Below are positions 18,193 through 52,182 of a stretch of 64,000 bases of DNA, in pieces. The notes under the pieces are model-generated. The model saw nothing but the letters and a program-made list of their open reading frames with translations. It did no database searches and was not told where the DNA came from. Positions within the stretch are counted from its first letter, which is position 1. Every line of letters begins with the position of its first letter. The stretch covers positions 139,635-203,634 of the forward strand of contig JAQTZZ010000002.1 of assembly GCA_028687545.1 (NCBI GenBank), given 5' to 3'. The stretch is from Candidatus Wallbacteria bacterium. GTDB taxonomy: Bacteria; Muiribacteriota; JAQTZZ01. Both the position numbers and the translations under genes were made by a program.

Positions 18193-18220
18193 ATTAAGTA
18201 AAGAATGAGCATTGAAGTAG

Positions 18221-18240
18221 AGACGCGCCATGGCGCGTCT
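18221..18240. promoter_or_regulatory. perfect 20-bp palindrome AGACGCGCCATGGCGCGTCT
   Basis: Exactly self-complementary. Sits ~30 bp upstream of the putative -35 of the giant gene and ~40 bp downstream of the small ORF at 18280..18399. Could be an operator or a hairpin. Confidence 0.35.
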
Positions 18241-18279
18241 TTACCCTCGGATGTTGCAAGAAATTTGCCGACTCAACAA

Positions 18280-23282: not shown

Positions 23283-24320
23283 ATGGGAAACAAGAAAATC
23301 CTGGTGATCGCGGCCTACGCAGGAATCGGAGATTTTTTCCTGTCCCTGCCGATGTTCGAAACCCTGCATCAGCAATACAACACGAAATTCGACATCCTGG
23401 TGCGCTCTGACGCCAGATTTCTGCCGTTTATCAGGACTGTCGACCTGTTCAGCCATGTCTATATTTATGACCGCAAAGGAAAGCACAGTTCCTTTTCAGC
23501 CCAGTTCAGGCTCCTCAGAAGGTTGCGCCGGCAGAATTATGAGATCGGATTCACCCTTCATCCAGGCAAGCGCTATGTCCTGATGCTGTATCTGTCCGGA
23601 GCTGAAATCCGTGTCGGCGGATATGAATACTCTTTTCTCAAATATTTCCTGACCCACCCGGTCCCGGACCTTAAGGCCGACCCGATCTTTTTCAGGAAAT
23701 TCCAGGCAGGGGAAGTCCATGGACTGGACTGTTTTTTCTATTTTCTGGACTGCCTGGGCTTGAAATACGAGCGGAAAAAACCGGTAGTGTCCCTTGGAGA
23801 AATCGAAAAAAGTGCCGCTATCCTGATTTCCGGACTGAATAAGCCTCTGATCGGCATCAACACCGGATCTTCAGGCGAAGCCAAAAACTGGCCGCTGGAG
23901 AATTTTCTCGCTCTTGCTGAAAATCTCAAGAAGGAAAAAAAGGCTTCTCTGATCTTTTTCGGCGGTCCGGGAGAGGCCGATAAATTTTCGGTTTTTAAAA
24001 GCAGATTCCCTGCTGATCTGTATGCCATCGGAAACGATTTCCCGATTCTTCTCAACACAGCCCTCCTGAAAAAATGCGACCTGCTGATCTCCAACGACAC
24101 AGGCCTGGTGCACATCGCCTCATTTTTCGATCTGCCTGTCATCTCCATCGGTGGAGGCGCAAGAACAGGCAAGGCTTTTCTGGCCTGGAGCAAAAAATCC
24201 CGTAATCTTCTTGAATCAGTTGACTGCAATCTGCTCTGCAGAGAATGCGGCAATTGTGCCTGCGTAAAGAATATCAGGGTAGAGAGTGTGCTGAAGGCTG
24301 TGGATGAACTGCTTTCGTAG
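23283..24320 (+). CDS. glycosyltransferase family 9 (LPS heptosyltransferase-like)
   Basis: GT9 hallmarks: ILVIAAYAGIGDFF near the N-terminus and ISNDTGLVHIASFFDLPVISIGG near the C-terminus; 345 aa. Confidence 0.8.
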   Translation: MGNKKILVIAAYAGIGDFFLSLPMFETLHQQYNTKFDILVRSDARFLPFIRTVDLFSHVYIYDRKGKHSSFSAQFRLLRRLRRQNYEIGFTLHPGKRYVLMLYLSGAEIRVGGYEYSFLKYFLTHPVPDLKADPIFFRKFQAGEVHGLDCFFYFLDCLGLKYERKKPVVSLGEIEKSAAILISGLNKPLIGINTGSSGEAKNWPLENFLALAENLKKEKKASLIFFGGPGEADKFSVFKSRFPADLYAIGNDFPILLNTALLKKCDLLISNDTGLVHIASFFDLPVISIGGGARTGKAFLAWSKKSRNLLESVDCNLLCRECGNCACVKNIRVESVLKAVDELLS

Positions 24321-24344
24321 GGAACGGTCGCGACTGTTCCCTAC
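24317..24344. terminator. 28-bp near-perfect palindrome spanning the stop codons of two convergent glycosyltransferase genes
   Basis: GTAGGGAACGGTCGCGACTGTTCCCTAC is self-complementary except for one G·T pair; it contains TAG at 24318-24320 (+ gene) and the complement of CTA at 24341-24343 (- gene). No flanking T-tract. Confidence 0.4.
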
Positions 24345-40120: not shown

Positions 40121-40939
40121 ATGAAAGTCATTATCACTGCAGCAGTCACAGGTGCAGAAACCACCCGCGCCCAGCAGCCGAATCTGCCGGTAACTCCGGC
40201 GGAAATCGCCCAGTCCACATATGAAGCCTGCATGGCCGGTGCAGCCATCGTCCACCTGCATGTACGAAAAGACGACGGGACTCCTACCCAGGATGTGGGT
40301 ATCTTTGAGAAAACAATTAAACTGATCCGCGAGAAATGCGAGATTGTGATCGAGATCACCACAGGCGGAGCAGTGGGCATGAGCGATGATGAGCGAGTGG
40401 CTCCGGTCAAACTCAAGCCCGACCTTGCGTCCCTCGACTGCGGCTCAGTCAATTTCGGCGACGACATCCTGCCCAACGGTTTCCCCAGCCTGCGCAGATT
40501 CGCCCGCCTGATGCGCGAACATGGCGTCAAGCCCACCATTGAATGCTTCGATTACGGCCACATCAACAATGCCAAGCTCCTGATCAAGGAAGGCCTGATC
40601 GATCCGCCTTATTATTTCACCTTTGTGACTGGTGTACCGGGTGGAATTCCGGGCACAGTCAAGAATCTTGTCTTCATGCGGGATGAGCTGCCTGAAAATA
40701 CTGTCTGGTCCAGCATCGGCATCGGCGGCAAGGCGTCGCTTCCCATGGGCCTGGCAGCCCTTCTGATGGGCGGCAATGTGCGCACCGGGTTCGAAGACAA
40801 CATCTATTTCAGGAAAGGCCAGCTCGCCAAGAGCAACGCCCAGCTCGTAACCCGGATCGTGGAGTTCGCCAAGGAACTGGGGCACGAGATCGCCACCCCG
40901 GCGGAAGCGAGAGAGATTTTAGGATTGAAGAAAAAGTGA
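40121..40939 (+). CDS. kce: 3-keto-5-aminohexanoate cleavage enzyme (BKACE/DUF849 family)
   Basis: N-terminal VIITAAVTGAETT...PNLPVTPAEIA...AGAAIVHLHVR matches the BKACE family; 272 aa; GGGGGTG Shine-Dalgarno; next to kdd and kamA. Confidence 0.8.
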   Translation: MKVIITAAVTGAETTRAQQPNLPVTPAEIAQSTYEACMAGAAIVHLHVRKDDGTPTQDVGIFEKTIKLIREKCEIVIEITTGGAVGMSDDERVAPVKLKPDLASLDCGSVNFGDDILPNGFPSLRRFARLMREHGVKPTIECFDYGHINNAKLLIKEGLIDPPYYFTFVTGVPGGIPGTVKNLVFMRDELPENTVWSSIGIGGKASLPMGLAALLMGGNVRTGFEDNIYFRKGQLAKSNAQLVTRIVEFAKELGHEIATPAEAREILGLKKK

Positions 40940-40976
40940 ATATCAGTCTGACAAAATTTTTCATTGAGGAGGTTAA

Positions 40977-42017
40977 ATGAAAGGCAATAAGTTCGGAACC
41001 CATCGCGTGATCGAGCCCAAAGGAGTGCTGCCCCAGCCCGCGCTGGTGATCGACAATGACATGAATAAACTATACGACAATGAAATACTCTGCGATGTGA
41101 CCACGCTGAACGTAGACTCGGCAAGCTTCACCCAGATCAAGGACGAAGCCGTAAAAGACCCCAAAAGAATCGAAGAAATAATGCTCGGGATTGTAGAACG
41201 CTTTGGCAAGCATAAAAATCCTGTCACAGGCTCAGGAGGCATGTTCATCGGTAAAGTAGCCAGAATTGGTAAAGCGCTTAAAGGCAAGATCCCTCTTCAG
41301 GAAGGAGACAGAATCGCAAGCCTGGTCTCGCTCTCGCTCACTCCGCTGAAGATCAAGAAAATCAAGAAAATCCACATAGACAAAGATCAGGTGGACATCG
41401 AAGGCCAGGCCATCCTGTTCGAGTCAGCGATTTACGCCAAGCTGCCGGAAGACCTGGACGAGAAACTGGCGCTGGCAGTGCTGGATGTGGCAGGTGCGCC
41501 TGCTCAGACCGCCAAACTGGTGCGGCCGGGCAATACAGTGCTGGTGATAGGCGCAGCAGGCAAATCCGGCCTTCTCTGCTGCTATGTAGCCAAGAAATAT
41601 GCCGGTTGCACCGGCCGTGTGATTGCCCTGGTGCATAGCGAAAAAAGCCTGGACCTGATGAAAAAAGTGAATTTCATTGATAACGTGATCGTGGCCGAAG
41701 CCTCAAACGCAGTGGATGTGCTGGAAAAGGTGGAAGCAGTCACCAACGGACAGCTCTGCGACCTGGTGATCAACTGCGTGAGCCGTGAAAACACGGAGAT
41801 GGGATCGATTCTCCCCTGCAAAGACAATGGTACGGTCTATTTTTTCTCCATGTCCACGAGTTTCACCAAAGCAGCTCTGGGCGCCGAGGGAGTAGGCAAG
41901 GACGTGACCATGGTGATCGGCAACGGCTATACCAAGGATCATGCCGCGATCACTATCGATTTAATGAGGGAATCCGAATGGCTGAGGAAATATTACGAGA
42001 AAAAGTACGTCGGCTGA
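40977..42017 (+). CDS. kdd: L-erythro-3,5-diaminohexanoate dehydrogenase (probable)
   Basis: 346 aa with Rossmann motif VLVIGAAGKSG; GAGGAGG Shine-Dalgarno; sits between kce and kamA as in lysine-fermentation operons. Assignment leans on context as well as sequence. Confidence 0.65.
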   Translation: MKGNKFGTHRVIEPKGVLPQPALVIDNDMNKLYDNEILCDVTTLNVDSASFTQIKDEAVKDPKRIEEIMLGIVERFGKHKNPVTGSGGMFIGKVARIGKALKGKIPLQEGDRIASLVSLSLTPLKIKKIKKIHIDKDQVDIEGQAILFESAIYAKLPEDLDEKLALAVLDVAGAPAQTAKLVRPGNTVLVIGAAGKSGLLCCYVAKKYAGCTGRVIALVHSEKSLDLMKKVNFIDNVIVAEASNAVDVLEKVEAVTNGQLCDLVINCVSRENTEMGSILPCKDNGTVYFFSMSTSFTKAALGAEGVGKDVTMVIGNGYTKDHAAITIDLMRESEWLRKYYEKKYVG

Positions 42018-42028
42018 AAGGAGTGCCT

Positions 42029-43273
42029 ATGGCTAGAGTCTTTTCGGATGTGCCTGAAAAAAAGTGGCAGGACTGGCAGTGGCAGCTGCAGAACCGCCTT
42101 ATGAAACTGCCTGATCTGAAGAAATGCTACCCTCTGACTGGCCAGCAGGTCAAGGATATCCAGAAAGTGCTGGTCAGCTTCAGGATGGCGATCACCCCAT
42201 ATTACCTTTCACTGATCGACCCTCAGAATCCTGACGATCCTGTGATGAAACAGGCTATTCCCACTATCCATGAAACAGAATTTTACCCCACAGATATGGA
42301 TGATCCCCTGCATGAGGAAGTGGATTCGCCTTGTCCTGGTCTCACCCATCGCTACCCTGACCGGGCGCTGCTTTTAGTGACTCATGTCTGCTCGATGTAC
42401 TGCAGGCACTGCACACGCAGGAGAAAAGTCGGAGACAATGAGGACCGGCACCTTCCCAAAAAGCAGCTGCTGGCCGGCTTTGATTACATCAGGAAAACGC
42501 CGCAGATCAGGGATGTGATTCTCTCAGGCGGTGACCCCTTCACCTTGACTGATCAGGAAATAGAGTGGCTGCTCTCTGAGCTTCGCAAGATCAAGCATGT
42601 GGAGATCATCCGTATCGGCACCAGGACTCCGGTCGTACTTCCCATGCGCATCACGGAAGCTCTCTGCCGGATGATCAAGAAGTACCATCCGGTCTACGTC
42701 AATACTCACTTCAATCATTTCCAGGAAATCAACGCAGACTCCAAACGGGCCTGCGAAATGCTTGCAGACCACGGTATTCCGCTCGGCAACCAGTCAGTGC
42801 TTTTAAAAGGAGTCAACGACAATCCGGCAGTGATGAAAAAGCTGGTCTGCGACCTCTTGAAGATCCGCGTCAAACCCTATTACATCTATGAATGCGACAT
42901 GTCCCGCGGCATCAGCCATTTCAGGACCCCTGTCGCCACAGGCATCAGCATCATGGAAAACCTGCGCGGACATGTCTCTGGCCTCGCTGTCCCGCATTTT
43001 GTAATCGACGCTCCAGGCGGAGGCGGAAAAGTGCCTGTGATGCCGACCTACATCATCTCCCAGGGGCCCGGTACGATCGTGCTGCGCAACTACGAAGGCA
43101 AAATCATTTCCTGCCACGACCGTCCGGGCGAAGCCGAAACCGAGGACCTGCCCAAAAACCTGAGCAGATACTATTCCATGGAAGGTGTGGCGGAACTCCT
43201 GAACACCCAGAATCACGCGCTGGATTACGGCAAGATCCTCAAGAAAGGTCCCAAGCGCGGAAAAAGAAAATAA
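42029..43273 (+). CDS. kamA: L-lysine 2,3-aminomutase (radical SAM, PLP-dependent)
   Basis: KamA N-terminal W.DWQWQL region, radical SAM CSMYCRHC, and a conserved C-terminal PLP region. Start set at the ATG at 42029 after AAAGGAG; the track's upstream start at 41978 overlaps kdd. Confidence 0.85.
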   Translation: MARVFSDVPEKKWQDWQWQLQNRLMKLPDLKKCYPLTGQQVKDIQKVLVSFRMAITPYYLSLIDPQNPDDPVMKQAIPTIHETEFYPTDMDDPLHEEVDSPCPGLTHRYPDRALLLVTHVCSMYCRHCTRRRKVGDNEDRHLPKKQLLAGFDYIRKTPQIRDVILSGGDPFTLTDQEIEWLLSELRKIKHVEIIRIGTRTPVVLPMRITEALCRMIKKYHPVYVNTHFNHFQEINADSKRACEMLADHGIPLGNQSVLLKGVNDNPAVMKKLVCDLLKIRVKPYYIYECDMSRGISHFRTPVATGISIMENLRGHVSGLAVPHFVIDAPGGGGKVPVMPTYIISQGPGTIVLRNYEGKIISCHDRPGEAETEDLPKNLSRYYSMEGVAELLNTQNHALDYGKILKKGPKRGKRK

Positions 43274-43317
43274 TTGCTCTGATTTTTAAACAGTCTGTTT
43301 CAAAATCGAATTCCAAG

Positions 43318-43350
43318 AAGAGAAATCCAACGGGTTTCTCTTCTTTTTTT
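43318..43350 (+). terminator. intrinsic terminator after kamA
   Basis: Perfect 9-bp stem GAAGAGAAA / TTTCTCTTC with a 9-nt loop, followed directly by a T7 run. Confidence 0.5.
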
Positions 43351-43395
43351 GAACCGATTCCATTTTTTTTCGTATAGTATGTAAAAGAAGGCAAA

Positions 43396-43899
43396 ATGGA
43401 CGCAAACGAAACACTCAAAAAATGGTTTTCCGAATATCACAGAGAGCTGTTTCTGTTCCTGCGGAAGCTGAGCAGAGACCATCATCTGGCGCAGGACCTG
43501 ATCCAGGAAACTTATGTCAGGGCTTACCTGAAATTCCACCTGTACGATCCCTCTCGCGGAAAACTGAAAAACTGGCTCTACCGGATCGCCATAAATCTTT
43601 ATCACGACCATCTGCGTTTTGAAAGCAGAGAACAGGAAACAGTCCGGAAACTGTCTGTGGAAAAACAGCTGGAATCCCAGGGCGACAAAAACGGAGAGGA
43701 ATGCTTTAAAATTCTACTGGAGCGAGCAGTGGACAGCCTGATTCCGGAGAAAAGGGAAATTCTGCTGTTATCGCTGGACAATAAGCTTGAAGAGGTAGGG
43801 CGGATTCTGGATCTGCCTGAGGGAACGGTAAAAAGCCGGCTTTTTCATATCAGACGGGAACTGCAGTCCCTGATCGAAAAACTGGAAACGGAGGCGTGA
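43396..43899 (+). CDS. ECF-type RNA polymerase sigma-70 factor
   Basis: Region 2 (HLAQDLIQETYVRAYLKF) and region 4 helix-turn-helix (LPEGTVKSRLFHIRREL); 167 aa. Confidence 0.85.
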   Translation: MDANETLKKWFSEYHRELFLFLRKLSRDHHLAQDLIQETYVRAYLKFHLYDPSRGKLKNWLYRIAINLYHDHLRFESREQETVRKLSVEKQLESQGDKNGEECFKILLERAVDSLIPEKREILLLSLDNKLEEVGRILDLPEGTVKSRLFHIRRELQSLIEKLETEA

Positions 43900-43900
43900 A

Positions 43901-44662
43901 ATGGGTATTAAAGACTTGAAGGAAAAACTGGACAGAATGGACGATTACATGCAGGACAAAAATGAGTCAATCCCGGAATGGGATGAGATTTCCGGCACTG
44001 TATACACGAAAATGGTGGACAGGACTTTCGGATATCTGATTTCATCACTGGCTGCGTGTTTCTTTCTGACGTTTGTGTTTCCAAGATATTATGCCGTCTG
44101 CAGCTTGAGCGGAAGCGATCCCGCAGAGTTCCTCAGACAGATAACGATTCTCTTTCTAAATCCCGGTATGCTGATTTCCACGATACTCGCCCTGCTTTTT
44201 TTCCTCGGGGGAACTGCACTTTATTTTTCCCATAACTGGGGACGGCTTCTGCTGAACTATTGCTTCGTGTTCTGGGGGCTGATAATCATCTATGAGATGC
44301 GCCACGGATTCGGCATGTTTCTCTCAGCAGAGATTTCCCAGAAGCTCCTGGCTCTGATGCTCTGGTTCTCAGTCATTCCTTTCATCTATGCCTATTTTGT
44401 CTATCATCAGCAGAGACTTTTTCATCTGAGCTTCTTGAAAGGCCTCATCCTGATCATGATGGCTGTCAATCTCTATATCATCTTCAACAGCATCTTCCTG
44501 GCACCGGCCGCGGCAGACAGACATGCCAATTACTTGCCGCTCGCCTTCTTTGCAGTCATCCTGATGCAGACTTACGAGGGACTCGGAACCTTCTTTCCCT
44601 CATTGCGTCAGATGCTGCATGGAAAATCAAAAGCCTCACAACCCCGTGAAACTGGAGCCTGA
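43901..44662 (+). CDS. polytopic membrane protein, possible anti-sigma factor partner
   Basis: Starts 1 nt after the sigma factor stop; soluble ~40-aa N-terminus then ~6 TM helices; no conserved motif. Confidence 0.5.
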   Translation: MGIKDLKEKLDRMDDYMQDKNESIPEWDEISGTVYTKMVDRTFGYLISSLAACFFLTFVFPRYYAVCSLSGSDPAEFLRQITILFLNPGMLISTILALLFFLGGTALYFSHNWGRLLLNYCFVFWGLIIIYEMRHGFGMFLSAEISQKLLALMLWFSVIPFIYAYFVYHQQRLFHLSFLKGLILIMMAVNLYIIFNSIFLAPAAADRHANYLPLAFFAVILMQTYEGLGTFFPSLRQMLHGKSKASQPRETGA

Positions 44663-44670
44663 GGCATGGT

Positions 44671-45684
44671 GTGTGTCTGGATTTTCGTGACAATACCGCG
44701 GGTTTGGGATACAATTACTGCATGCCGAAAGCCGCGCTTGAAAAACTCTTTTCAGAACCTGCCGTGTTCCTGACAGGCAACAGGAAAAATGCGGGGAAAA
44801 CCACGGTTCTGAATCACCTTGTCAGATACGCAAATTCGAAAAGAGAGGCGGAACATGTCTCTCTTTTTTCCATTGGCTGGGATGGCGAAGGACGTGACAG
44901 GATCTTTGAGAATCGGAAACCGGAAATCACTGTTTTCCAAGGCATGCGCTTTCTGACCGCTGAATACGCCCTGTCGCGAGCGGATTTCCCGTATCGGATT
45001 CTGTCAGGCTTCTCTTTCCGCTCCAATGCTGGAAATTACTATCTATGCCAAGCTCTGGCTGAAGGAAAAATCGAACTGATCGGACCTGAAGCTAATTATC
45101 AGCTGGATGAGGTTTTTTCGATTATCAAGGAATCGATGCCTGAAGGCACAGTATTGATCGACGGGGCGCTGGACAGGATCTCACAGATGGCTTCGCGGAA
45201 AGCGCCCGGCTTTGTCTTCATTTTCTCCCCTCTGCCGGGTAAAACCACTGAACAGATGCTGGCTGATTTCAGGCTGCAGCTCTCGCTTTTTGCACTTCCA
45301 AAAGCCGGATTGCTTTCACCCGGGGAGTCGGAAATCACGGGTTACAGTAAAGGCAAGGTCGTGCTGGAATGCGGAAAAAACGATCCTTTCACCGCTGAAT
45401 CGCTTGAGCTTGTTTATATTAAAGGCGCTCTCACCAGGAGCCTTGCCGATAAATTCCCCGGGGGGCTGGAACTGGTGGTGCAGGACTTCACCAGGATTTT
45501 TCTGGGTCCTGAAATTGAGCGGCGCAGGATCAGCGTGCTCGAACAGCCGGTGCCGCTGCTTTTCTGTTATAATCCAGGTCTGACAGGTATTGGTTTTCAG
45601 TCAATCCACAAAGAGCTTCTGGAAATGAATTCTGGATTTTTCCCCTCAGTCCGACTCTTAGATGTGATGGAACTGGAGAATTAG
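44671..45684 (+). CDS. hypothetical P-loop-containing protein
   Basis: Walker A-like FLTGNRKNAGKTTVLN near the N-terminus. GTG start at 44671 preceded by GAGG; the alternative ATG at 44722 has a weaker ribosome-binding site. Confidence 0.5.
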   Translation: MCLDFRDNTAGLGYNYCMPKAALEKLFSEPAVFLTGNRKNAGKTTVLNHLVRYANSKREAEHVSLFSIGWDGEGRDRIFENRKPEITVFQGMRFLTAEYALSRADFPYRILSGFSFRSNAGNYYLCQALAEGKIELIGPEANYQLDEVFSIIKESMPEGTVLIDGALDRISQMASRKAPGFVFIFSPLPGKTTEQMLADFRLQLSLFALPKAGLLSPGESEITGYSKGKVVLECGKNDPFTAESLELVYIKGALTRSLADKFPGGLELVVQDFTRIFLGPEIERRRISVLEQPVPLLFCYNPGLTGIGFQSIHKELLEMNSGFFPSVRLLDVMELEN

Positions 45685-45685
45685 C

Positions 45686-47263
45686 ATGGAAAGCGCAGTC
45701 CGCCTCTATACAAAGTATTCTCTGCAGAAAAGTAAAACCGCCAGGCTGTCCCTGCTCAAGAGGGTCTCAGCCGAACACCCGGAAATCCCGCTGCAGGGCG
45801 AAAAAGAAAAATTCTTTGAACTGGTGATAATTGAAGAGCAGGACAAGCCTCTGAGGGATTTTGCCCTTGGAATTTTACACAAGCTGAAAGGGTACGAAGT
45901 TAAGCCTGTAAAGACTGCCGGACGCCCTCCTGCCAAACCTGTCAAAATCGAGCAGAATTTCAGATTCTCGGTGCAGCGCGAAAATTTCCATGGCCCTCCT
46001 GCTCAGCTCAACAGCGAATTGAAAAAGCACTTTGCCGAACAATGCCGCGATCCGTTTTTTTCAGAAGTGCCGTTTCTCAACTACCTGCGCCGCGATCTGC
46101 GTGAAATCATCCGTAAAATCCTGAAAAAACCGCCTGTTTTCGGATTCTTTCAGTCAAAGCAGCACAATGGAGAAGCAGTTTATACTCTGGAAAAATCACT
46201 GGACCTGCAGCTTTTCTCAGGGCTGATCCCGCTGGACAGAGCGTTTTTTGCGGAAAATCACCTGCTGGACCCGGTGGCCAGGCTGGTGCCTGAACTCTAT
46301 TATACTCTCGTGCTGCTGGACCCGGATGGTCTGACACTGATCTTCAGGGGAGGCCTGGAACAGGTCAGCGCCTGCTATATGCGTCTGCCTGTTTCCGCTG
46401 TTTCGGACTGTTACTATCGAGACAATCGCTGCTTCCTAAAATTGACTGGCGAGATGCTGGTTTTCAGCGAGGTCTCAGAAGATGTTTCCTCTGAAATGGA
46501 GCTTGCCGTAAAGCTGAGCCGGGTTCTCGTTTCAGCGGAAGACCTTGGAATCATCGAGCGTGAAAAAAAGCGCCTTTCAGTGGAACTCAAGGGACGCATC
46601 ATCACGCAGGCGGTTTACAGCAAAAGACTTCAACTGATCACCCGGCTGAAGGATGCGATTTTTTCCCAGAGAAACATCGGCAGCATCCTGGGAAACCTGC
46701 TTTCTAAAAGTTCAGACGCCAGTAACAGGCTTATCTTCCGGGAATACGGGAAAGAGCTCTCGCTCCTTTTTTCGGACATCGTAGGCTTTACCAAAAAAAC
46801 TCAGCAGATCGGCACTGTCGGGATCATGGGAGTGCTTGCACTTTACGAAAAAATTGCGGAAAACGCAGCCGTAAAATATTCCGGACAGATCATCAAGAAA
46901 ATGGGAGACGGGATTCTGTTTTCCTTTGAAAAAAAGGAAAACGCAGCGCAATGCGCTTTCCATCTTCTTTCGGAAATCGATTCCACCAATCAAAATCTGG
47001 AGCATAACCACCGCTTTCAGATCAGGATCGTGCTTAATTCAGGCCTGATCTTTCAGAAAAACGGCGACATCTTCGGGGATCCGGTGAACATGATTTCCAG
47101 GATAGAAAAGGAAGCCGGGGCAGGGGAAATCGTAGCTACTGAAAGCTTCATCACCGGGATTTCTTCTGAATTTCAATGTCAGAGCCTGGGGGAAAAAAAT
47201 CTCAAGGGTTTTGAGGAACCAGTAACAATTTTCAGAATCATCAAAACCCCGGAGGACAGATGA
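45686..47263 (+). CDS. class III adenylate/guanylate cyclase-domain protein with ~330-aa uncharacterised N-terminal region
   Basis: C-terminal cyclase homology domain (LLFSDIVGFT...KKMGDGILFSF...RIVLNSGLIFQKNGDIFGDPVNMISRIEK); starts 1 nt after the upstream stop. Confidence 0.75.
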   Translation: MESAVRLYTKYSLQKSKTARLSLLKRVSAEHPEIPLQGEKEKFFELVIIEEQDKPLRDFALGILHKLKGYEVKPVKTAGRPPAKPVKIEQNFRFSVQRENFHGPPAQLNSELKKHFAEQCRDPFFSEVPFLNYLRRDLREIIRKILKKPPVFGFFQSKQHNGEAVYTLEKSLDLQLFSGLIPLDRAFFAENHLLDPVARLVPELYYTLVLLDPDGLTLIFRGGLEQVSACYMRLPVSAVSDCYYRDNRCFLKLTGEMLVFSEVSEDVSSEMELAVKLSRVLVSAEDLGIIEREKKRLSVELKGRIITQAVYSKRLQLITRLKDAIFSQRNIGSILGNLLSKSSDASNRLIFREYGKELSLLFSDIVGFTKKTQQIGTVGIMGVLALYEKIAENAAVKYSGQIIKKMGDGILFSFEKKENAAQCAFHLLSEIDSTNQNLEHNHRFQIRIVLNSGLIFQKNGDIFGDPVNMISRIEKEAGAGEIVATESFITGISSEFQCQSLGEKNLKGFEEPVTIFRIIKTPEDR

Positions 47264-48861
47264 AAGATATTTTCGTCCATCTAAGAATCGCCGAATTTCT
47301 GGAGCAGGAATGGGAGCTGTATTCTCCTGTCTGCCGCCGCCGGAAAGAGGATTTCCTTCACTTCCATACTCCAGGGGAGGAATGCAATTTGAGACATGAA
47401 TGGATGATCCAGCGGCATTTTCTGGAGTTTCTCACTAAGCTCCCGGATGCCGGTGAAAATGTCCGTGAATCACTGCGGAAAATTCCGGATGTCAGCAGCA
47501 TGCTCGAACAGGAGAATCTGGCTGTATTCGAACTTTTTGACCTGAAAAAATTTCTGCTGCATTTACGGAAAATCAGGGAAATCTGGTCCTCCAGCTCCTT
47601 AAGACCCTTTGTTTTCAAGCACGCTTATCAAAATCTCTGGCAGTTCCTGACTTTTTCCCAGGATGAGCATAGTTTCGCGATAGTATCAGGTTATTCCAGG
47701 GCATTAAGCAGCATCCGCACAAAAATTTCCAGCCTGCGCAATGCCCGCGACAGGCGCATCCAGGCTTTCTACAGACAGCTCGAACGGAAATTCAAGCTGA
47801 AAAAGCGGATCATGTCCGAAGAATTCACTGTTGATCTGGAGTCAAAACTTTTACCTGTTCTGAGAAAGTCCCCTCATTTTACGCTGATCGAAGAGAAAGG
47901 CGGCTATTGCCTGTTCAGGATCAGATTTCCTTCTGCTGTCGAACGCCTGAATCAATCGATCAACAATCTGCGCAGAAAGGAAGCCGCTGCCGAGCTGAAA
48001 GTGCTGGACAGGCTCAACGCCTGCTATCGGAAAGTCAGGTCTAATCTGAAAAAAGATTACGAAAACCTGATACTCTGGGAAAAGTATTTTTCCCTGGCCA
48101 GTATGTCGCAGAAACTGGGGCTAATTGAACCTGAATTGAGAAAGCGCGGAGTTTCTGTAAAAAACGGCCGTTATCTGCCTCTGGCAAAGGATCTGGCATT
48201 GCAGAATCTCAACTACACTCCGCTTGATTTCGAAACATCAACCAGCGCCAGCATCATCTCAGGCTCCAACATGGGCGGCAAGACACAGGTCCTGAAAGCC
48301 ATCGGATTCCTGCAGGGGCTGTTCCAGCTCGGTTTCTTCCTGCCGGCTGAGACATTTTCCTCAAGCCTCTTTTTTGAAATCTACTTTTCCGCAGCCGAGC
48401 GTTTTCCGGAAAAAGCCGGACTCTCCAGTTTCGGGTCAGAAATCAGCTACATCTCAGAAGCCCTGGAAAAGATAGACCACCGCTGCCTGTACCTGGTGGA
48501 CGAATTCTCGCGCACCACCAATATCCGCGAAGGCCTGGCCCTCAATTACGCGCTGCTCTCGCATTTTTCAGGGTCAAAATCCACTCTGGTGCTGACCACT
48601 CACTTTGACATTCTCACCGGATATCTCAAAGTCTCCCAGTTCCAGACCGGCGGCTTGAAAGGCAAAAAAGAACTTCCCTCCCTTTATAAACTCCACGGCC
48701 CTGAGCGCGCCGCATATTTCCACAAGCTGATGGACTACCACCTGCACCCGAAAAAGGGTTCCGCAGTGCCCGAAGAAGCGCTCACCATAGCCGAAATCCT
48801 GGGCCTGCAGCCCGGCATCATCGCTGATGCCAGGAAGTTTTTAGTTAAACTGAGAAAGTAA
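47260..48861 (+). CDS. MutS domain V-like ABC-type ATPase (no mismatch-binding or Smr domain evident)
   Basis: Walker A SGSNMGGKTQVLKA, Walker B LYLVDEF, and LVLTTHFD (MutS-type His motif); coiled-coil-rich N-terminal half; 4-bp overlap with the cyclase gene. Confidence 0.65.
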   Translation: MKDIFVHLRIAEFLEQEWELYSPVCRRRKEDFLHFHTPGEECNLRHEWMIQRHFLEFLTKLPDAGENVRESLRKIPDVSSMLEQENLAVFELFDLKKFLLHLRKIREIWSSSSLRPFVFKHAYQNLWQFLTFSQDEHSFAIVSGYSRALSSIRTKISSLRNARDRRIQAFYRQLERKFKLKKRIMSEEFTVDLESKLLPVLRKSPHFTLIEEKGGYCLFRIRFPSAVERLNQSINNLRRKEAAAELKVLDRLNACYRKVRSNLKKDYENLILWEKYFSLASMSQKLGLIEPELRKRGVSVKNGRYLPLAKDLALQNLNYTPLDFETSTSASIISGSNMGGKTQVLKAIGFLQGLFQLGFFLPAETFSSSLFFEIYFSAAERFPEKAGLSSFGSEISYISEALEKIDHRCLYLVDEFSRTTNIREGLALNYALLSHFSGSKSTLVLTTHFDILTGYLKVSQFQTGGLKGKKELPSLYKLHGPERAAYFHKLMDYHLHPKKGSAVPEEALTIAEILGLQPGIIADARKFLVKLRK

Positions 48862-48875
48862 ATATTGTCAACTAT

Positions 48876-50129
48876 TTATGCCGCACAAGATAACTCGACA
48901 TTTTCACATGTTTTCGCATCAGCTCTGTACCAACAGAATCTCAATGCTACAGCCAGAATGATCTGAACGATTGCAGACAGGATCAGGATCGCCCAGGCTG
49001 AGGTGAAAGCTGCGGCAAAAGTGCCGATCAGGAGCGATAAGATCGCGGCCGGGCTTTCCAGGAATGAGAACAGGGCAAAGACCTGGCCCCTGTTTTCGTC
49101 GGCCACCTGCTGCTGGACAATCGTGTTGAGAATGATGGTGTGAGCGGCGCTCGCCAGGCCCAGAAAAGCGAAAATCAGGATTGCCAGACGATTATAACCG
49201 TTCAGCAGGAACCACAGGAAAAACAGTCCGTCCCAGAAGAGGATGTTCAGGTAAAGTCTGAGCGGATTGCGGCCATCCAGGATCAGGCCCAGAAGCAGAC
49301 TGCCGACTACGATCCCGATTCCGAGCGCTGAGAGAAGCACACCCCAGGCGAGCTCTGCCTTGTCGCCCAGGCCCAGGCCGTCCTTGAGATGGAAATAGAT
49401 CAGGATTCCCTGCATTGTCATGGCGATGGTCACGAAAGTGTTGATCAGAAGCATCCTGCGCAAGTTCAGGTCTGACCAGACTGCAGACAAACTCCTGCCT
49501 ATGGGCTGCCGGTTATTTTTCGATTTTACAGAAATATGTTTCTCATCGACCCTCAGATTGTAAATGATCAGGGCTGAGATCAGAAAGGTAGCGCCGTCGA
49601 TCAGGAAAGCAGGTGCAGTTCCAAGCAGCCCGGCCACGGCAGCGCCGAAGGCAGAGCCGCAGATCAGGTTGACATTGCTCAGGGATGAATTGAAGGAATT
49701 GTAAAGCACCAGGTCCTCGCGGCGCACCAGGTTCGGTTCCAGAGCGCTCTGGGCCGGCTGCCTGAATACATAGACCAGGGAGCTCAGGAACGCAAAGAAG
49801 TAAATCCCTGGCAGGCTGTCCACAAAAATCACGCAAGCAATGGCCAGGGCGGAAAAGACATCGCAGAGCACCATTACCATCCTGCGGGACAAGCAGTCCA
49901 CGATCCGTCCTGCGAACAGCCCGCACAGCAGGAATGGCACGAATTTCATGACTGTCAGGAAACCCAGGTCAGTGATTCTCCCGCCTGAGATGTCATAGAC
50001 TTTTTTCAGAAGCGCGAAATAGCTGACATGATTCCCGAGGCTCGAAATAAAACCCGCGGAAATCAGCAGCATCACCGGCCGGTTGGCAAACAGCATCCCG
50101 TATTTTTTGAGTGCAGCCAGTCTTTTCAT
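48876..50129 (-). CDS. MFS transporter
   Basis: 417 aa, ~12 predicted TM helices, MFS-like loop motifs. Confidence 0.8.
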   Translation of the reverse strand: MKRLAALKKYGMLFANRPVMLLISAGFISSLGNHVSYFALLKKVYDISGGRITDLGFLTVMKFVPFLLCGLFAGRIVDCLSRRMVMVLCDVFSALAIACVIFVDSLPGIYFFAFLSSLVYVFRQPAQSALEPNLVRREDLVLYNSFNSSLSNVNLICGSAFGAAVAGLLGTAPAFLIDGATFLISALIIYNLRVDEKHISVKSKNNRQPIGRSLSAVWSDLNLRRMLLINTFVTIAMTMQGILIYFHLKDGLGLGDKAELAWGVLLSALGIGIVVGSLLLGLILDGRNPLRLYLNILFWDGLFFLWFLLNGYNRLAILIFAFLGLASAAHTIILNTIVQQQVADENRGQVFALFSFLESPAAILSLLIGTFAAAFTSAWAILILSAIVQIILAVALRFCWYRADAKTCENVELSCAA

Positions 50130-50153
50130 GATTCACACCTTTATTGAGCTTTT

Positions 50154-50226
50154 GCGCCATAAAGAATGGTGTTCTCGAATGCATCTCAGCAGAGATGAGG
50201 CGAATCCAAAGTGTTCTTTATGGCGT
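50154..50226 (-). promoter_or_regulatory. long dyad-symmetry element in the MFS leader (12-bp perfect inverted repeat enclosing an inner hairpin)
   Basis: CGCCATAAAGAA (50155-50166) pairs with TTCTTTATGGCG (50214-50225); an inner CATCTC/GAGATG hairpin lies between; ~25 nt upstream of the MFS ATG. Confidence 0.35.
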
Positions 50227-50604
50227 TAAAGATCATTAATCCCCTTTCCCGGTCCGGTTGGACCGTAAGAAAACCATTTTTCAGAGCGATAAACTGAAAC
50301 AGTTTAACGCTCAGAAAACAGAGCTGAAGCGAACAAAAATGAGCTCCGCGGGGATTGATGTGAGATGCTGTCAGTGATCTGACTGAAGGATCAGGAATCG
50401 AATCCCGCAGGGAGCAAACGTTCAGGGCCTTGGGAACTCAAGTCATCCATATTGCCTCCCTGTAGGATATTTGGAAGAGTTCGGAAAATCCCTCTTCCAA
50501 ATTAATTATACAGCAAATATCGGCATAAAGCCAGATAAGATTAAGAACCAGCCGGCTTGTCATGGTCTGAAACCCGGGTTATATGTTGTACAGATGGGGA
50601 GACA

Positions 50605-52182
50605 ATGAAACTATCTGTTTTAATTTCACTGCTGTTCATGTCCGTCGTTTCGGCGGGACCGCTTTCGCTTACTCCCATGCAGAAAGCTTCCGACTTTTAT
50701 GCCCTGACCAAGATCATGGAAACAGGTTATGCGATGCTGGAATACAAGAAAACCAATATCCTCAAGGAAGATTACCTGCAGATAAAGAAGCGGTATTTCT
50801 TCGATATCTCGAAAACCAGAACTGATGCGGAATACTATACATTGCTTTTCAAGTACATCCATGAATTCAAGGACGGCCACCTTTACCTGGACGGTGTGTT
50901 CAATCTGGACCTGGCAATGCTGCCGGTAGATTTTCGGTATCTTGAGGGAAAAGTGGTGGTATCCGACATCTACATTACTGGGACAAAGTTCGGAATCGGG
51001 GATGAACTGATCGAATTCGACGGCAAACCGACCGCATCTGTCCTGGAAGAGCTGGCTCCTTATTACACCGGCGGAGGCTCAGCCGGACATCAGCTGAAGG
51101 GGATATTGCAGGCAATCGGTTACCGCTCCAGCAACAGGCTGATGCCTGCTGACGGGAGCAGCGCGGTTCTCAAGCTGAAAAGCAGGAAAACCGGCTCCGA
51201 GTATTCCGATACAGAGGCTTGGGTCATCAAGAAATACAGCGAGATCTATTCCAGGGGATTCAGGCTGCCAGCCAGGCTCCACTCGTTCTATGAAAACGAC
51301 GGGAATTGGAGTTTTGACCCTCTGTATGTGCAGACGCTGATCAGGAAGCAGCTTATGGGCAGTCCTGTAGCCGGCCAGAGGCTTGAAGATAACCTGACCG
51401 CAGAAATAATACTGTACACCTCCGGATCGAAACAGTACAAAATCGGCAGGATCAGGGTTCCGGACTATGATGGATGGGCTATTGAATCGTTCGACACTCT
51501 GCTCAGCGGACTTGCTGACTGCGACGGCCTGATTTTGGACCAGAGGGACAACCCGGGCGGTTACATCGATCTCTGCCAGAACCTGGTTTCTCGTTTCCTG
51601 GATGCACCTCTGACAAATCTGGAGTTTTCCGTTCCGCTCAACCGGCACTGGCTGAATAATGTTGAACTCAAGCTCAAGTTGTATACTCAAGCCCAGTATC
51701 CTGCTGATCAGATCGCCGTGGTAAAGACCTGCAGGGATACGATGTACGCAAATGCCAATGCAGGCAAGAAAATGAGTGATTTCATACCGTTCTTCTATGC
51801 AAGCAAACTCCAACCTGCTGAGCTGAAATTTCTTAAGCCGGTGCTGGTCCTGATTGACTCAGGCTGCTTCAGTTGCGGGGATCTGGTGCCTGCATCGTTC
51901 AGGCAGAAAGACTGGATGGGCAAACTCAAGCTTTTCGGAGAGACAACAGGCGCCGGAGGAGGAAATGTAGTCCAAGCCGGCCCGCTTCCTCTCAGTGAAA
52001 CAATGTTCCACGTCACAGCCAGCCTGGCCCGCTGGGGTGGAAAAAACATCATCGAAAACAATGGGATCAGCCCGGATGTGGTTTCCCCATATACAATCTC
52101 CGACCTGTACAGCGAGGCTGTAGAAAATAAAAACACATACCTGGAAAAGGCCTGTGCCGAACTGGTCAAGATGATAAACTGA
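50605..52182 (+). CDS. S41-family peptidase (C-terminal processing protease-like), secreted
   Basis: Signal peptide MKLSVLISLLFMSVVSAG; S41-type DQRDNPGGYIDL motif. Start set at the ATG at 50605 after GGGGAG. Confidence 0.7.
   Translation: MKLSVLISLLFMSVVSAGPLSLTPMQKASDFYALTKIMETGYAMLEYKKTNILKEDYLQIKKRYFFDISKTRTDAEYYTLLFKYIHEFKDGHLYLDGVFNLDLAMLPVDFRYLEGKVVVSDIYITGTKFGIGDELIEFDGKPTASVLEELAPYYTGGGSAGHQLKGILQAIGYRSSNRLMPADGSSAVLKLKSRKTGSEYSDTEAWVIKKYSEIYSRGFRLPARLHSFYENDGNWSFDPLYVQTLIRKQLMGSPVAGQRLEDNLTAEIILYTSGSKQYKIGRIRVPDYDGWAIESFDTLLSGLADCDGLILDQRDNPGGYIDLCQNLVSRFLDAPLTNLEFSVPLNRHWLNNVELKLKLYTQAQYPADQIAVVKTCRDTMYANANAGKKMSDFIPFFYASKLQPAELKFLKPVLVLIDSGCFSCGDLVPASFRQKDWMGKLKLFGETTGAGGGNVVQAGPLPLSETMFHVTASLARWGGKNIIENNGISPDVVSPYTISDLYSEAVENKNTYLEKACAELVKMIN

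Follow-up and report, generated by a model that had tools for sequence, protein, structure and literature searches.

What is the 475-bp spacer between two divergently oriented genes of a Candidatus Wallbacteria bacterium, and why is it so rich in inverted repeats? On one side lies a gene for an MFS transporter and on the other a gene for an S41 peptidase. The original prediction held that this amount of dyad symmetry suggests a structured leader RNA, a small RNA gene or several operator sites rather than plain spacer. We asked how much of this holds when the spacer is compared with the rest of the 64-kb window, which is the whole stretch of DNA that was analyzed (64,000 nucleotides), and with other genomes. 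The features of the locus are listed in Table 1.

Table 1. Positions of the features in and around the MFS/S41 spacer, numbered from the first nucleotide of the window
Feature	Position	Strand	Details
Divergent intergenic region	50130..50604		475 bp, MFS (-) to S41 (+); from ORFs and Pfam
MFS transporter gene	48876..50129	-	MFS_1/MFS_3 (Pfam); start ATG at 50129
S41 peptidase gene	50605..52182	+	Pfam; start ATG at 50605; N-terminus signal-peptide-like
S41 Shine-Dalgarno sequence	50596..50601	+	GGGGAG
MFS Shine-Dalgarno sequence	50136..50141	-	AAGGTG; 6 nt upstream of ATG, directly 3' of H1
H1, composite hairpin	50141..50239	both	99 nt; z -5.3 (+), -5.8 (-); 0/300 shuffles as good
H1 core	50155..50166 / 50214..50225		12-bp perfect inverted repeat CGCCATAAAGAA/TTCTTTATGGCG
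H1 outer extension	50141..50166 / 50214..50239		26-nt arms, 85%
H1 inner hairpin	50182..50197		CATCTC-AGCA-GAGATG
H2	50250..50265		CGGTCC-GGTT-GGACCG, 6-bp stem; z -2.9/-3.8; 2-6/300 shuffles as good; marginal alone
H3	50278..50296 / 50300..50318		19-nt arms, 89%; 3-nt loop; z -6.8/-6.6; 0/300 shuffles as good
H5	50402..50468		13-nt arms, 85%; z -2.2/-1.8; marginal
H5 core	50408..50414 / 50456..50462		CAGGGAG/CTCCCTG, 41 nt between
H6	50469..50502		11-bp perfect stem ATTTGGAAGAG/CTCTTCCAAAT (50469..50479 / 50492..50502), 12-nt loop; z -4.3/-3.4; 0/300 shuffles as good
Predicted MFS promoter, sigma-70-type	50505..50533	-	-35 TGGCTT (50533->50528), 17-nt spacer, -10 TATAAT (50510->50505)
Predicted MFS transcript start	~50498	-	from TGGCTT-17-TATAAT; at 5' edge of H6
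Predicted S41 promoter	50557..50585	+	-35 TTGTCA (50557-50562), 17 nt, TATATG (50580-50585)
Candidate uORF1	50391..50450	-	19 codons, MDDLSSQGPERLLPAGFDS; Shine-Dalgarno GGGAGG in H5 5' arm; hypothetical
Candidate uORF2	50186..50236	-	16 codons, MIFNAIKNTLDSPHLC; Shine-Dalgarno GGGGA; hypothetical
H1 arm motif CGCCATAAAG, first copy	50155..50164	+	
H1 arm motif, second copy	50216..50225	-	
H1 arm motif, third copy	50521..50530	+	CGGCATAAAG, 9/10 match to CGCCATAAAG; overlaps predicted MFS -35/spacer
GGA-enriched stretch	50380..50495	+	7 GGA in 116 nt; top 1% of windows

Both flanking proteins have identical entries in an NCBI MAG of Candidatus Wallbacteria bacterium, and the start of the S41 gene was confirmed by the identical 525-aa NCBI model. 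The Logan assembly of SRR22315507, which comes from the same sample, matched at 100% identity over 8.3 kb with zero differences. The MFS protein is DHA3/Mef/EntS-like, but it falls under every equivalog cutoff in NCBIfam, and its score is far short of the Mef cutoffs. The GC content of the MFS gene is ~0.55, which is higher than in its neighbors. No ORF of at least 50 aa is contained entirely within the spacer, and no tRNA or tmRNA genes were found. Among the genes scanned from 40.1 to 63.9 kb, there was no transposase, no recombinase or invertase and no regulator adjacent to the spacer. The closest TetR gene is 7 kb off, beside a CLC channel gene.

The hairpin cluster is real and statistically unusual. 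Minimum folding energies (MFE) were compared with those of dinucleotide shuffles, and the spacer had a z-score of -5.3 on the plus strand and -5.75 on the minus strand, with none of 100 shuffles as good. It was the most extreme of the 14 intergenic regions in the window, the others ranging from -3.1 to +1.9. In a set of 39 evenly spaced control windows of 475 nt, z averaged -0.68 (sd 1.03) and went no lower than -2.85. In addition, the 64 kb contain 12 long short-range inverted repeats, and two of these are found within this 475 bp, which is 0.7% of the sequence. The view that the region is more than plain spacer was, therefore, borne out statistically by the shuffles, the 14 spacers and the 39 windows.

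Each hairpin was also tested singly against 300 shuffles. All the inverted repeats listed in the original prediction were present where they had been reported, including the CATCTC/GAGATG hairpin enclosed within H1 upstream of the MFS ribosome-binding site and the CAGGGAG/CTCCCTG arms, which form the core of H5. The GGAAGAG/CTCTTCC arms are actually part of an 11-bp perfect repeat, H6. Of these listed hairpins, H1 and H6 exceeded chance, whereas the CGGTCC (H2) and CAGGGAG (H5) hairpins individually did not. The strongest single hairpin, H3, was absent from the list. It contains two mismatches, A-A (U-U). No excess structure was found at 50340-50400 or at 50503-50604, the latter having a z-score of ~0. 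The base of H1 adjoins the MFS Shine-Dalgarno sequence with a gap of 0-1 nt.

Since the two genes are divergent, the hairpins are not terminators of the flanking genes. An intrinsic terminator was rejected more generally, as both genes point away from the spacer and no hairpin is followed by a U-tract. No terminator-like site was found on either strand from 49900 to 50800, and inspection of the sequence revealed no U-tract directly after any of the hairpins. H3 is flanked on both strands by TTTT on its 5' side and AAAA on its 3' side, which is not terminator-like. A z-score of ~-6 was also obtained at one homolog locus, where a simple terminator lies in a co-directional spacer. That type of explanation is inapplicable here because both genes point outward and there is no hairpin with a U-tract.

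Assigning the structure to one strand by G-U pairs or folding energy was attempted and dropped, because the strands proved symmetric. G-U pairs are as rare on one strand as on the other (6/97 vs 5/95), and the cores of H1, H3 and H6 consist of Watson-Crick pairs with zero G-U pairs. H1 is ~4.6 kcal/mol stabler on the plus strand owing to three flanking G-U pairs. Equal folding of the strands and rare G-U pairs weaken the case for a function at the RNA level, since these properties are commoner in DNA-level or young palindromes than in an RNA that has long been under selection.

The spacer falls into two parts. The structured part is on the MFS side, and the unstructured distal part (50503-50604) contains, for each strand, the promoter-like site that scored best in the spacer. 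The MFS site had the best minus-strand score in the spacer with a position weight matrix (PWM), 8.5, which is in the top 0.09% window-wide. No minus-strand site from 50130 to 50500 scored better, the best being 5.9. On the plus strand, the best-scoring site sits a short way before the Shine-Dalgarno sequence of S41, and the top pairing of the PWM there was TATGTT with a 19-nt spacer. The PWM uses approximate sigma-70 hexamer frequencies, and the scan is rough. The best hits in the window were canonical TTGACA-17-TATAAT sites in other intergenic regions, which suggests that sigma-70-type scoring is informative in the host organism.

In a blastn search against phages, the only match was a 42-nt alignment (37/42) of the MFS promoter-like site with a spacer that reads TTGCTT-17-TATAAT in polluks, a T5-like Salmonella phage, and has the same orientation to its downstream gene as at MFS. 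We read this match as likeness to a strong promoter class, not homology. A blastn search against plasmids found nothing.

Taken together, we tentatively favor the reading that the cluster from 50141 to 50502 is the transcribed and folded 5' leader of the mRNA for the MFS efflux-type transporter, ~369 nt on the minus strand, although the chance that it is something else is considerable. Several results argue for this reading. The structure is far beyond chance and local background, and the structured part separates cleanly from the unstructured part that bears the promoter-like sites. No better minus-strand promoter-like site is found nearer to the MFS start, and the site that is there resembles a promoter-like spacer of a T5-type phage over 42 nt. 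Of the three options in the original prediction, a structured leader RNA fits best, given that the promoter-like sites are distal. The transcription start, the strand, the use of upstream ORFs and the switching described below are what we infer. The feature is real, and it is probably an ordinary lineage-specific regulatory leader.

The region next to the MFS gene also argues for a leader. H1 abuts the Shine-Dalgarno sequence, whose predicted unpaired probability is 0.32 in the full leader and falls to 0.08 when the 5' arm of H1 is masked, and there is an alternative hairpin that would hide it. Furthermore, two candidate upstream ORFs preceded by Shine-Dalgarno sequences fall inside H5 and H1. 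Candidate uORF2 spans the 5' arm of H1, and its stop codon is within the inner loop. The hexamer AUAAAG occurs twice, once in the 5' arm of H1 and once in the Shine-Dalgarno region, and either one can base-pair with CUUUAU in the 3' arm of H1.

If the leader reading is correct, two back-to-back promoters would lie in the unstructured part of the spacer. Transcription of MFS would begin at the edge of H6 and would give an mRNA with a 5'-terminal stem-loop of the stabilizing type, and a start at ~50498 would place H5, H3, H2 and H1 all inside the leader. The 3' arm of H1 (CUUUAU) could pair with the 5' arm (AUAAAG, in uORF2), which would leave the ribosome-binding site free. Alternatively, it could pair with AUAAAGGUG of the ribosome-binding region, which would hide the site. 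Ribosome occupancy of uORF2, or some other H1-opening factor, could then tune the translation of MFS. Given that there is no terminator in the leader, any control would be expected to act on the translation or the stability of the mRNA, and for the same reason transcription attenuation is unsupported.

Other results weaken the leader reading. The -35 of the MFS site, TGGCTT, is poor, agreeing with TTGACA at just 2/6 positions. The PWM score of 8.5 is under the top scores of the window, which are 12-15, and a strict sigma-70 consensus scan of 49900-50800 called no promoter, the MFS and S41 sites included. The switch model is weakened because the alternative and long-range pairings are individually not above chance. 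The alternative hairpin that would cover the Shine-Dalgarno sequence, ACACC...GGUGU, has an energy of -9.1 kcal/mol and a z-score of just -1.0, which is not above chance; the chance level for long-range helices of 7-11 nt is our own estimate. The lack of a homologous spacer in the collections searched and the absence of this leader from five MFS homolog loci also count against the leader reading.

These searches covered both known RNA families and related loci. Rfam 15 gave zero matches at the gathering threshold for the whole window. At E<=10, the region 49900-50800 returned generic-hairpin noise only, such as mir-5615 (20.6 bits vs a threshold of 82) and ctRNA_pND324 (19.6 vs 45). Among 5.8 billion proteins, and setting aside their own identical entries, the nearest homolog of the MFS protein is 52% identical and that of the S41 protein 46%. 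No locus related by its MFS protein was found in the genome contig collection. Six homolog loci were read (five for MFS and one for S41); none was syntenic and none had this spacer. Local alignments of the homolog upstream regions to the spacer were not above shuffles.

The hairpins themselves were also used as search patterns. The exact two-arm pattern of H1 had zero matches in genome contigs, and that of H3 had zero matches in metagenome contigs. A metagenome match to the H1 pattern was rejected as unrelated, as it is a fold-back assembly chimera in a nuoH-like gene. A viral match to the H6 pattern was dismissed as chance, since it lies inside a coding ORF of a phage and its flanks are dissimilar. 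Within the 64-kb window, no other copies of the H1, H2, H3 or H6 arms were found with 1-3 mismatches allowed.

Leaders and hairpins of known function offer some comparisons. The mef(E)/mel (msr(D)) leader of Streptococcus pneumoniae is 327 nt long, contains four inverted-repeat pairs and precedes a DHA3-type MFS efflux gene (PMC4335068). Its start has been mapped, its leader peptide Mef(E)L (MTASMRLR) is required, and it works by transcription attenuation through a Rho-independent terminator (PMC4335068). The present spacer is alike in the broad class of the gene, in length (327 vs ~369 nt predicted), in its multiple stem-loops and in having a short upstream ORF. The mef(E)/mel leader starts ~7 nt past a -35/-10 pair with 17-bp spacing, as the predicted leader here would. 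In contrast, the four inverted-repeat pairs of mef(E)/mel stand against three strong and two marginal hairpins here, the terminator has no counterpart, and the candidate peptides of uORF1 and uORF2 are unrelated to MTASMRLR. The spacer is not a member of the mef/mel leader family, but it may work in a similar way, acting on translation or mRNA stability.

Translational attenuators of the erm/cat type combine a leader ORF with alternative hairpins, by which the Shine-Dalgarno sequence is either masked or exposed. The layout here is alike in that segment 1 (AUAAAG, in the uORF) and segment 3 (AUAAAGGUG) would compete for CUUUAU. Unlike in erm, the polarity would be reversed, with ribosome occupancy hiding the Shine-Dalgarno sequence rather than freeing it. 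Also, there is no stalling-peptide motif here, and the layout covers H1 alone of the five hairpins. Another type of element is the 5'-terminal stem-loop that stabilizes bacterial mRNAs, as in the ompA 5' UTR. H6 would be comparable if the predicted start at ~50498 holds, but this leaves H1 and H3 unexplained.

Another possible explanation is that the hairpins are non-functional or relic DNA palindromes, either quasi-palindromes perfected by template switching or debris of a small mobile element, retained in a long and tolerant spacer. We consider this unlikely, though it is the alternative that we take most seriously. Cores without G-U pairs in H1, H3 and H6 that are equally stable on both strands are consistent with it, and so is the single occurrence of the element, no homolog of which was found in the collections searched. 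The flanking genes are orphan-like as well, with at most 52% (MFS) and 46% (S41) identity to other proteins and no synteny, and the GC content of the MFS gene exceeds that of its neighbors. However, three independent, unrelated and highly significant hairpins occur within 360 bp, and nothing comparable is seen in the 13 other spacers. The hairpins are also in an orderly arrangement, with the promoter-like block distal to them and the ribosome-binding site at their other end. As to mobile elements, no transposase or recombinase was among the genes scanned from 40.1 to 63.9 kb, and the lack of a second copy of the arms in the 64 kb argues against a REP or MITE family.

Palindromic repeats of the REP/BIME and MITE types are defined by their many copies per genome. 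The hairpins described here resemble them as short, near-perfect and strand-symmetric palindromes of a spacer, but they are single-copy in the 64-kb window. A REP/MITE family was, therefore, rejected as far as the 64 kb and the collections searched show, there being no copies in the latter either.

Next in probability, and improbable in our view, are protein-binding sites that act at the DNA level. A regulator would bind CGCCATAAAG and repress MFS, possibly by looping, and the other palindromes would serve other factors. Three copies of the motif are found in the spacer (Table 1), the third over the predicted promoter, and H1 provides an inverted pair of motifs 60 bp apart. Perfect strand-symmetric palindromes are also what dimeric DNA-binding proteins select. 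On the other hand, the arms of H1, H5 and H6 are spaced 12-47 bp apart, compared to 0-6 bp between typical operator half-sites, and most of the palindromes are removed from the predicted promoters by 130-370 bp in the downstream direction. With at most one mismatch, three of the six matches to the motif in the window sit in the spacer, but the total of six is not above chance (3.5 expected). The chance of a third copy matching at 9/10 positions is ~0.03 by our own post hoc estimate. Moreover, no regulator gene is adjacent, and the closest candidate is the TetR gene 7 kb away.

An independent gene for a small or medium non-coding RNA between MFS and S41, on either strand, also appears improbable, and slightly the more so. 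In one version, the RNA would be read from the plus strand and end at H6, followed by the U/A-rich tail UUAAUUAU. In another version, it would be read from the minus strand, with its 5' end at H6 and its 3' end short of the MFS gene. The local structure is strong, as such a gene would require, and both the greater stability of H1 and the GGA enrichment on the plus strand are in keeping with it. However, Rfam gave no match at either the gathering or the permissive threshold, no plus-strand promoter-like site was found upstream of the hairpins, an intrinsic terminator is absent on both strands, and the collections searched held no homolog. The GGA triplets are mostly in predicted stems rather than in loops, and a CsrA/RsmA sponge was rejected on this ground. 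A type I toxin was rejected as well, since the spacer contains no hydrophobic small ORF.

The least probable explanation by far is an invertible promoter (inverton) in which the CTTTATGGCG/CGGCATAAAG repeats (50216-25 / 50521-30) flank a ~295-bp segment carrying the -10: inverted copies of the motif do bracket a segment with TATAAT, but the repeat is just 13 nt at 85% and chance-level for its spacing, the -35 would fall on the repeat and not within the segment, no invertase or recombinase was among the genes scanned from 40.1 to 63.9 kb, and a second, independently made assembly from this sample has the same orientation.

The leader reading also receives support by analogy, since the mef(E)/mel leader and the upstream regions of two MFS homologs of Wallbacteria, L004 and L009, are comparable. 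These two upstream regions are 430-570 nt long, with a distal canonical promoter and conserved short ORFs. In both, a conserved hairpin ends 1-2 nt before the Shine-Dalgarno sequence, with which the 3' arm of the hairpin is able to form an alternative pairing. The leader in the window has no sequence likeness to them above shuffles, and the peptides differ. There is a slim chance that the ~360-nt hairpin array is an undescribed, lineage-specific cis-regulatory RNA, a leader that senses a ligand or the ribosome and controls an efflux transporter. Such an RNA would perhaps be related in logic to the uORFs and anti-Shine-Dalgarno hairpins of these other Wallbacteria MFS exporters.

If the leader reading is true, this would be another efflux-type transporter controlled after initiation through a long, folded 5' UTR. 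With L004 and L009, it hints that leader-based control of MFS exporters may be common in the Wallbacteria lineage. To our knowledge, no regulatory RNA has been characterized in the uncultured candidate phylum Wallbacteria. The hairpin cluster of this spacer does not itself open a long-standing question. At L004, the overall structure is much weaker than that of the leader in the window, with a z-score of -2.85, and the inner stem of the conserved hairpin differs between L004 and L009.

The predicted MFS promoter, on the minus strand of the spacer between the MFS transporter and S41 peptidase genes (50130-50604), resembles a phage sequence. Window positions 50493-50534 match Salmonella phage polluks (MT074456.1, 83423-83464, or L008:1501-1542) over 42 nt with 88% identity and an E value of 7e-5. 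On the side of this T5-like phage, the match is an intergenic sequence with TTGCTT-17-TATAAT, lying upstream of the gene polluks_106 in the same orientation, and the two sequences also have spacer bases in common. This likeness is probably due to convergence on a strong promoter type, though that would not by itself account for the shared spacer bases.

The MFS gene (48876-50129) is richer in GC (about 0.55-0.58) than both the spacer and the genes around it (about 0.43-0.50). Neither a close nor a syntenic homologue was found for the MFS gene or for the S41 gene. The two genes may be a laterally acquired module.

The exact two-arm search pattern for H1, the composite hairpin at 50141-50239, had a single metagenome "hit", L006 (JGI contig Ga0209386_1026767). 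At the start of this contig (1-185), some 90 nt from a nuoH-like gene fold back perfectly on themselves. The contig is an assembly chimera, and its hit was discarded as unrelated. On the plus strand, positions 50380-50495 carry seven GGA triplets in 116 nt, a density that ranks among the top 1% for windows of 110 nt. A CsrB-like reading was dismissed, however, because predicted stems contain most of these triplets.

MFS homologues in two other Wallbacteria assemblies have upstream regions with a common arrangement (see table). In both, the promoter is canonical (TTGCGA or TTGCCA, 17 nt, TTTAAT). Each region also has two ORFs: a conserved upstream ORF (uORF) of about 23 codons that terminates in ..PM..VL...HR*, and another that terminates in IKDD*. 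Directly 3' of the IKDD* stop is a hairpin, GCGGAG-loop-CUCCGC, whose inner stem differs between the loci (GCUC/GAGC vs ACCAG/CUGGU). The alternative partner of its 3' arm, (C/U)CUCC, is the MFS Shine-Dalgarno sequence GGAG(G/A), and this pairing shows a C-G to U-A change between L004 and L009. The arrangement looks like a uORF-coupled translational attenuator.

Elsewhere in the window, there is a cluster of lysine-fermentation type with an odd gene order, the cyclase-domain gene lying between the KamB-like and KamC-like genes. Two 28-bp palindromes start with GTAG.GA and end with T..CTAC or TTAC. They may represent a shared site or bidirectional terminators. One lies within a 506-bp spacer, and the other bridges the short gap where two genes converge, reaching into the end of each.

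Coordinates of upstream regions, gene cluster and palindromes
Feature	Position	Details
Upstream region of MFS homologue P0004	L004:158-600	another Wallbacteria assembly
Upstream region of MFS homologue P0009	L009:339-915	another Wallbacteria assembly
Cluster, first genes	40121-48861 (whole cluster)	BKACE, Zn-dehydrogenase-like protein, lysine 2,3-aminomutase
Cluster, then		ECF sigma factor, unknown 253-aa protein, KamB-like protein (score below cutoff)
Cluster, last		525-aa adenylate/guanylate cyclase-domain protein, KamC-like MutS_V ATPase (score above NCBIfam cutoff)
28-bp palindrome, no spacer	18217-18244	GTAGAGACGCGCCA / TGGCGCGTCTTTAC
28-bp palindrome, no spacer	24317-24344	GTAGGGAACGGTCG / CGACTGTTCCCTAC
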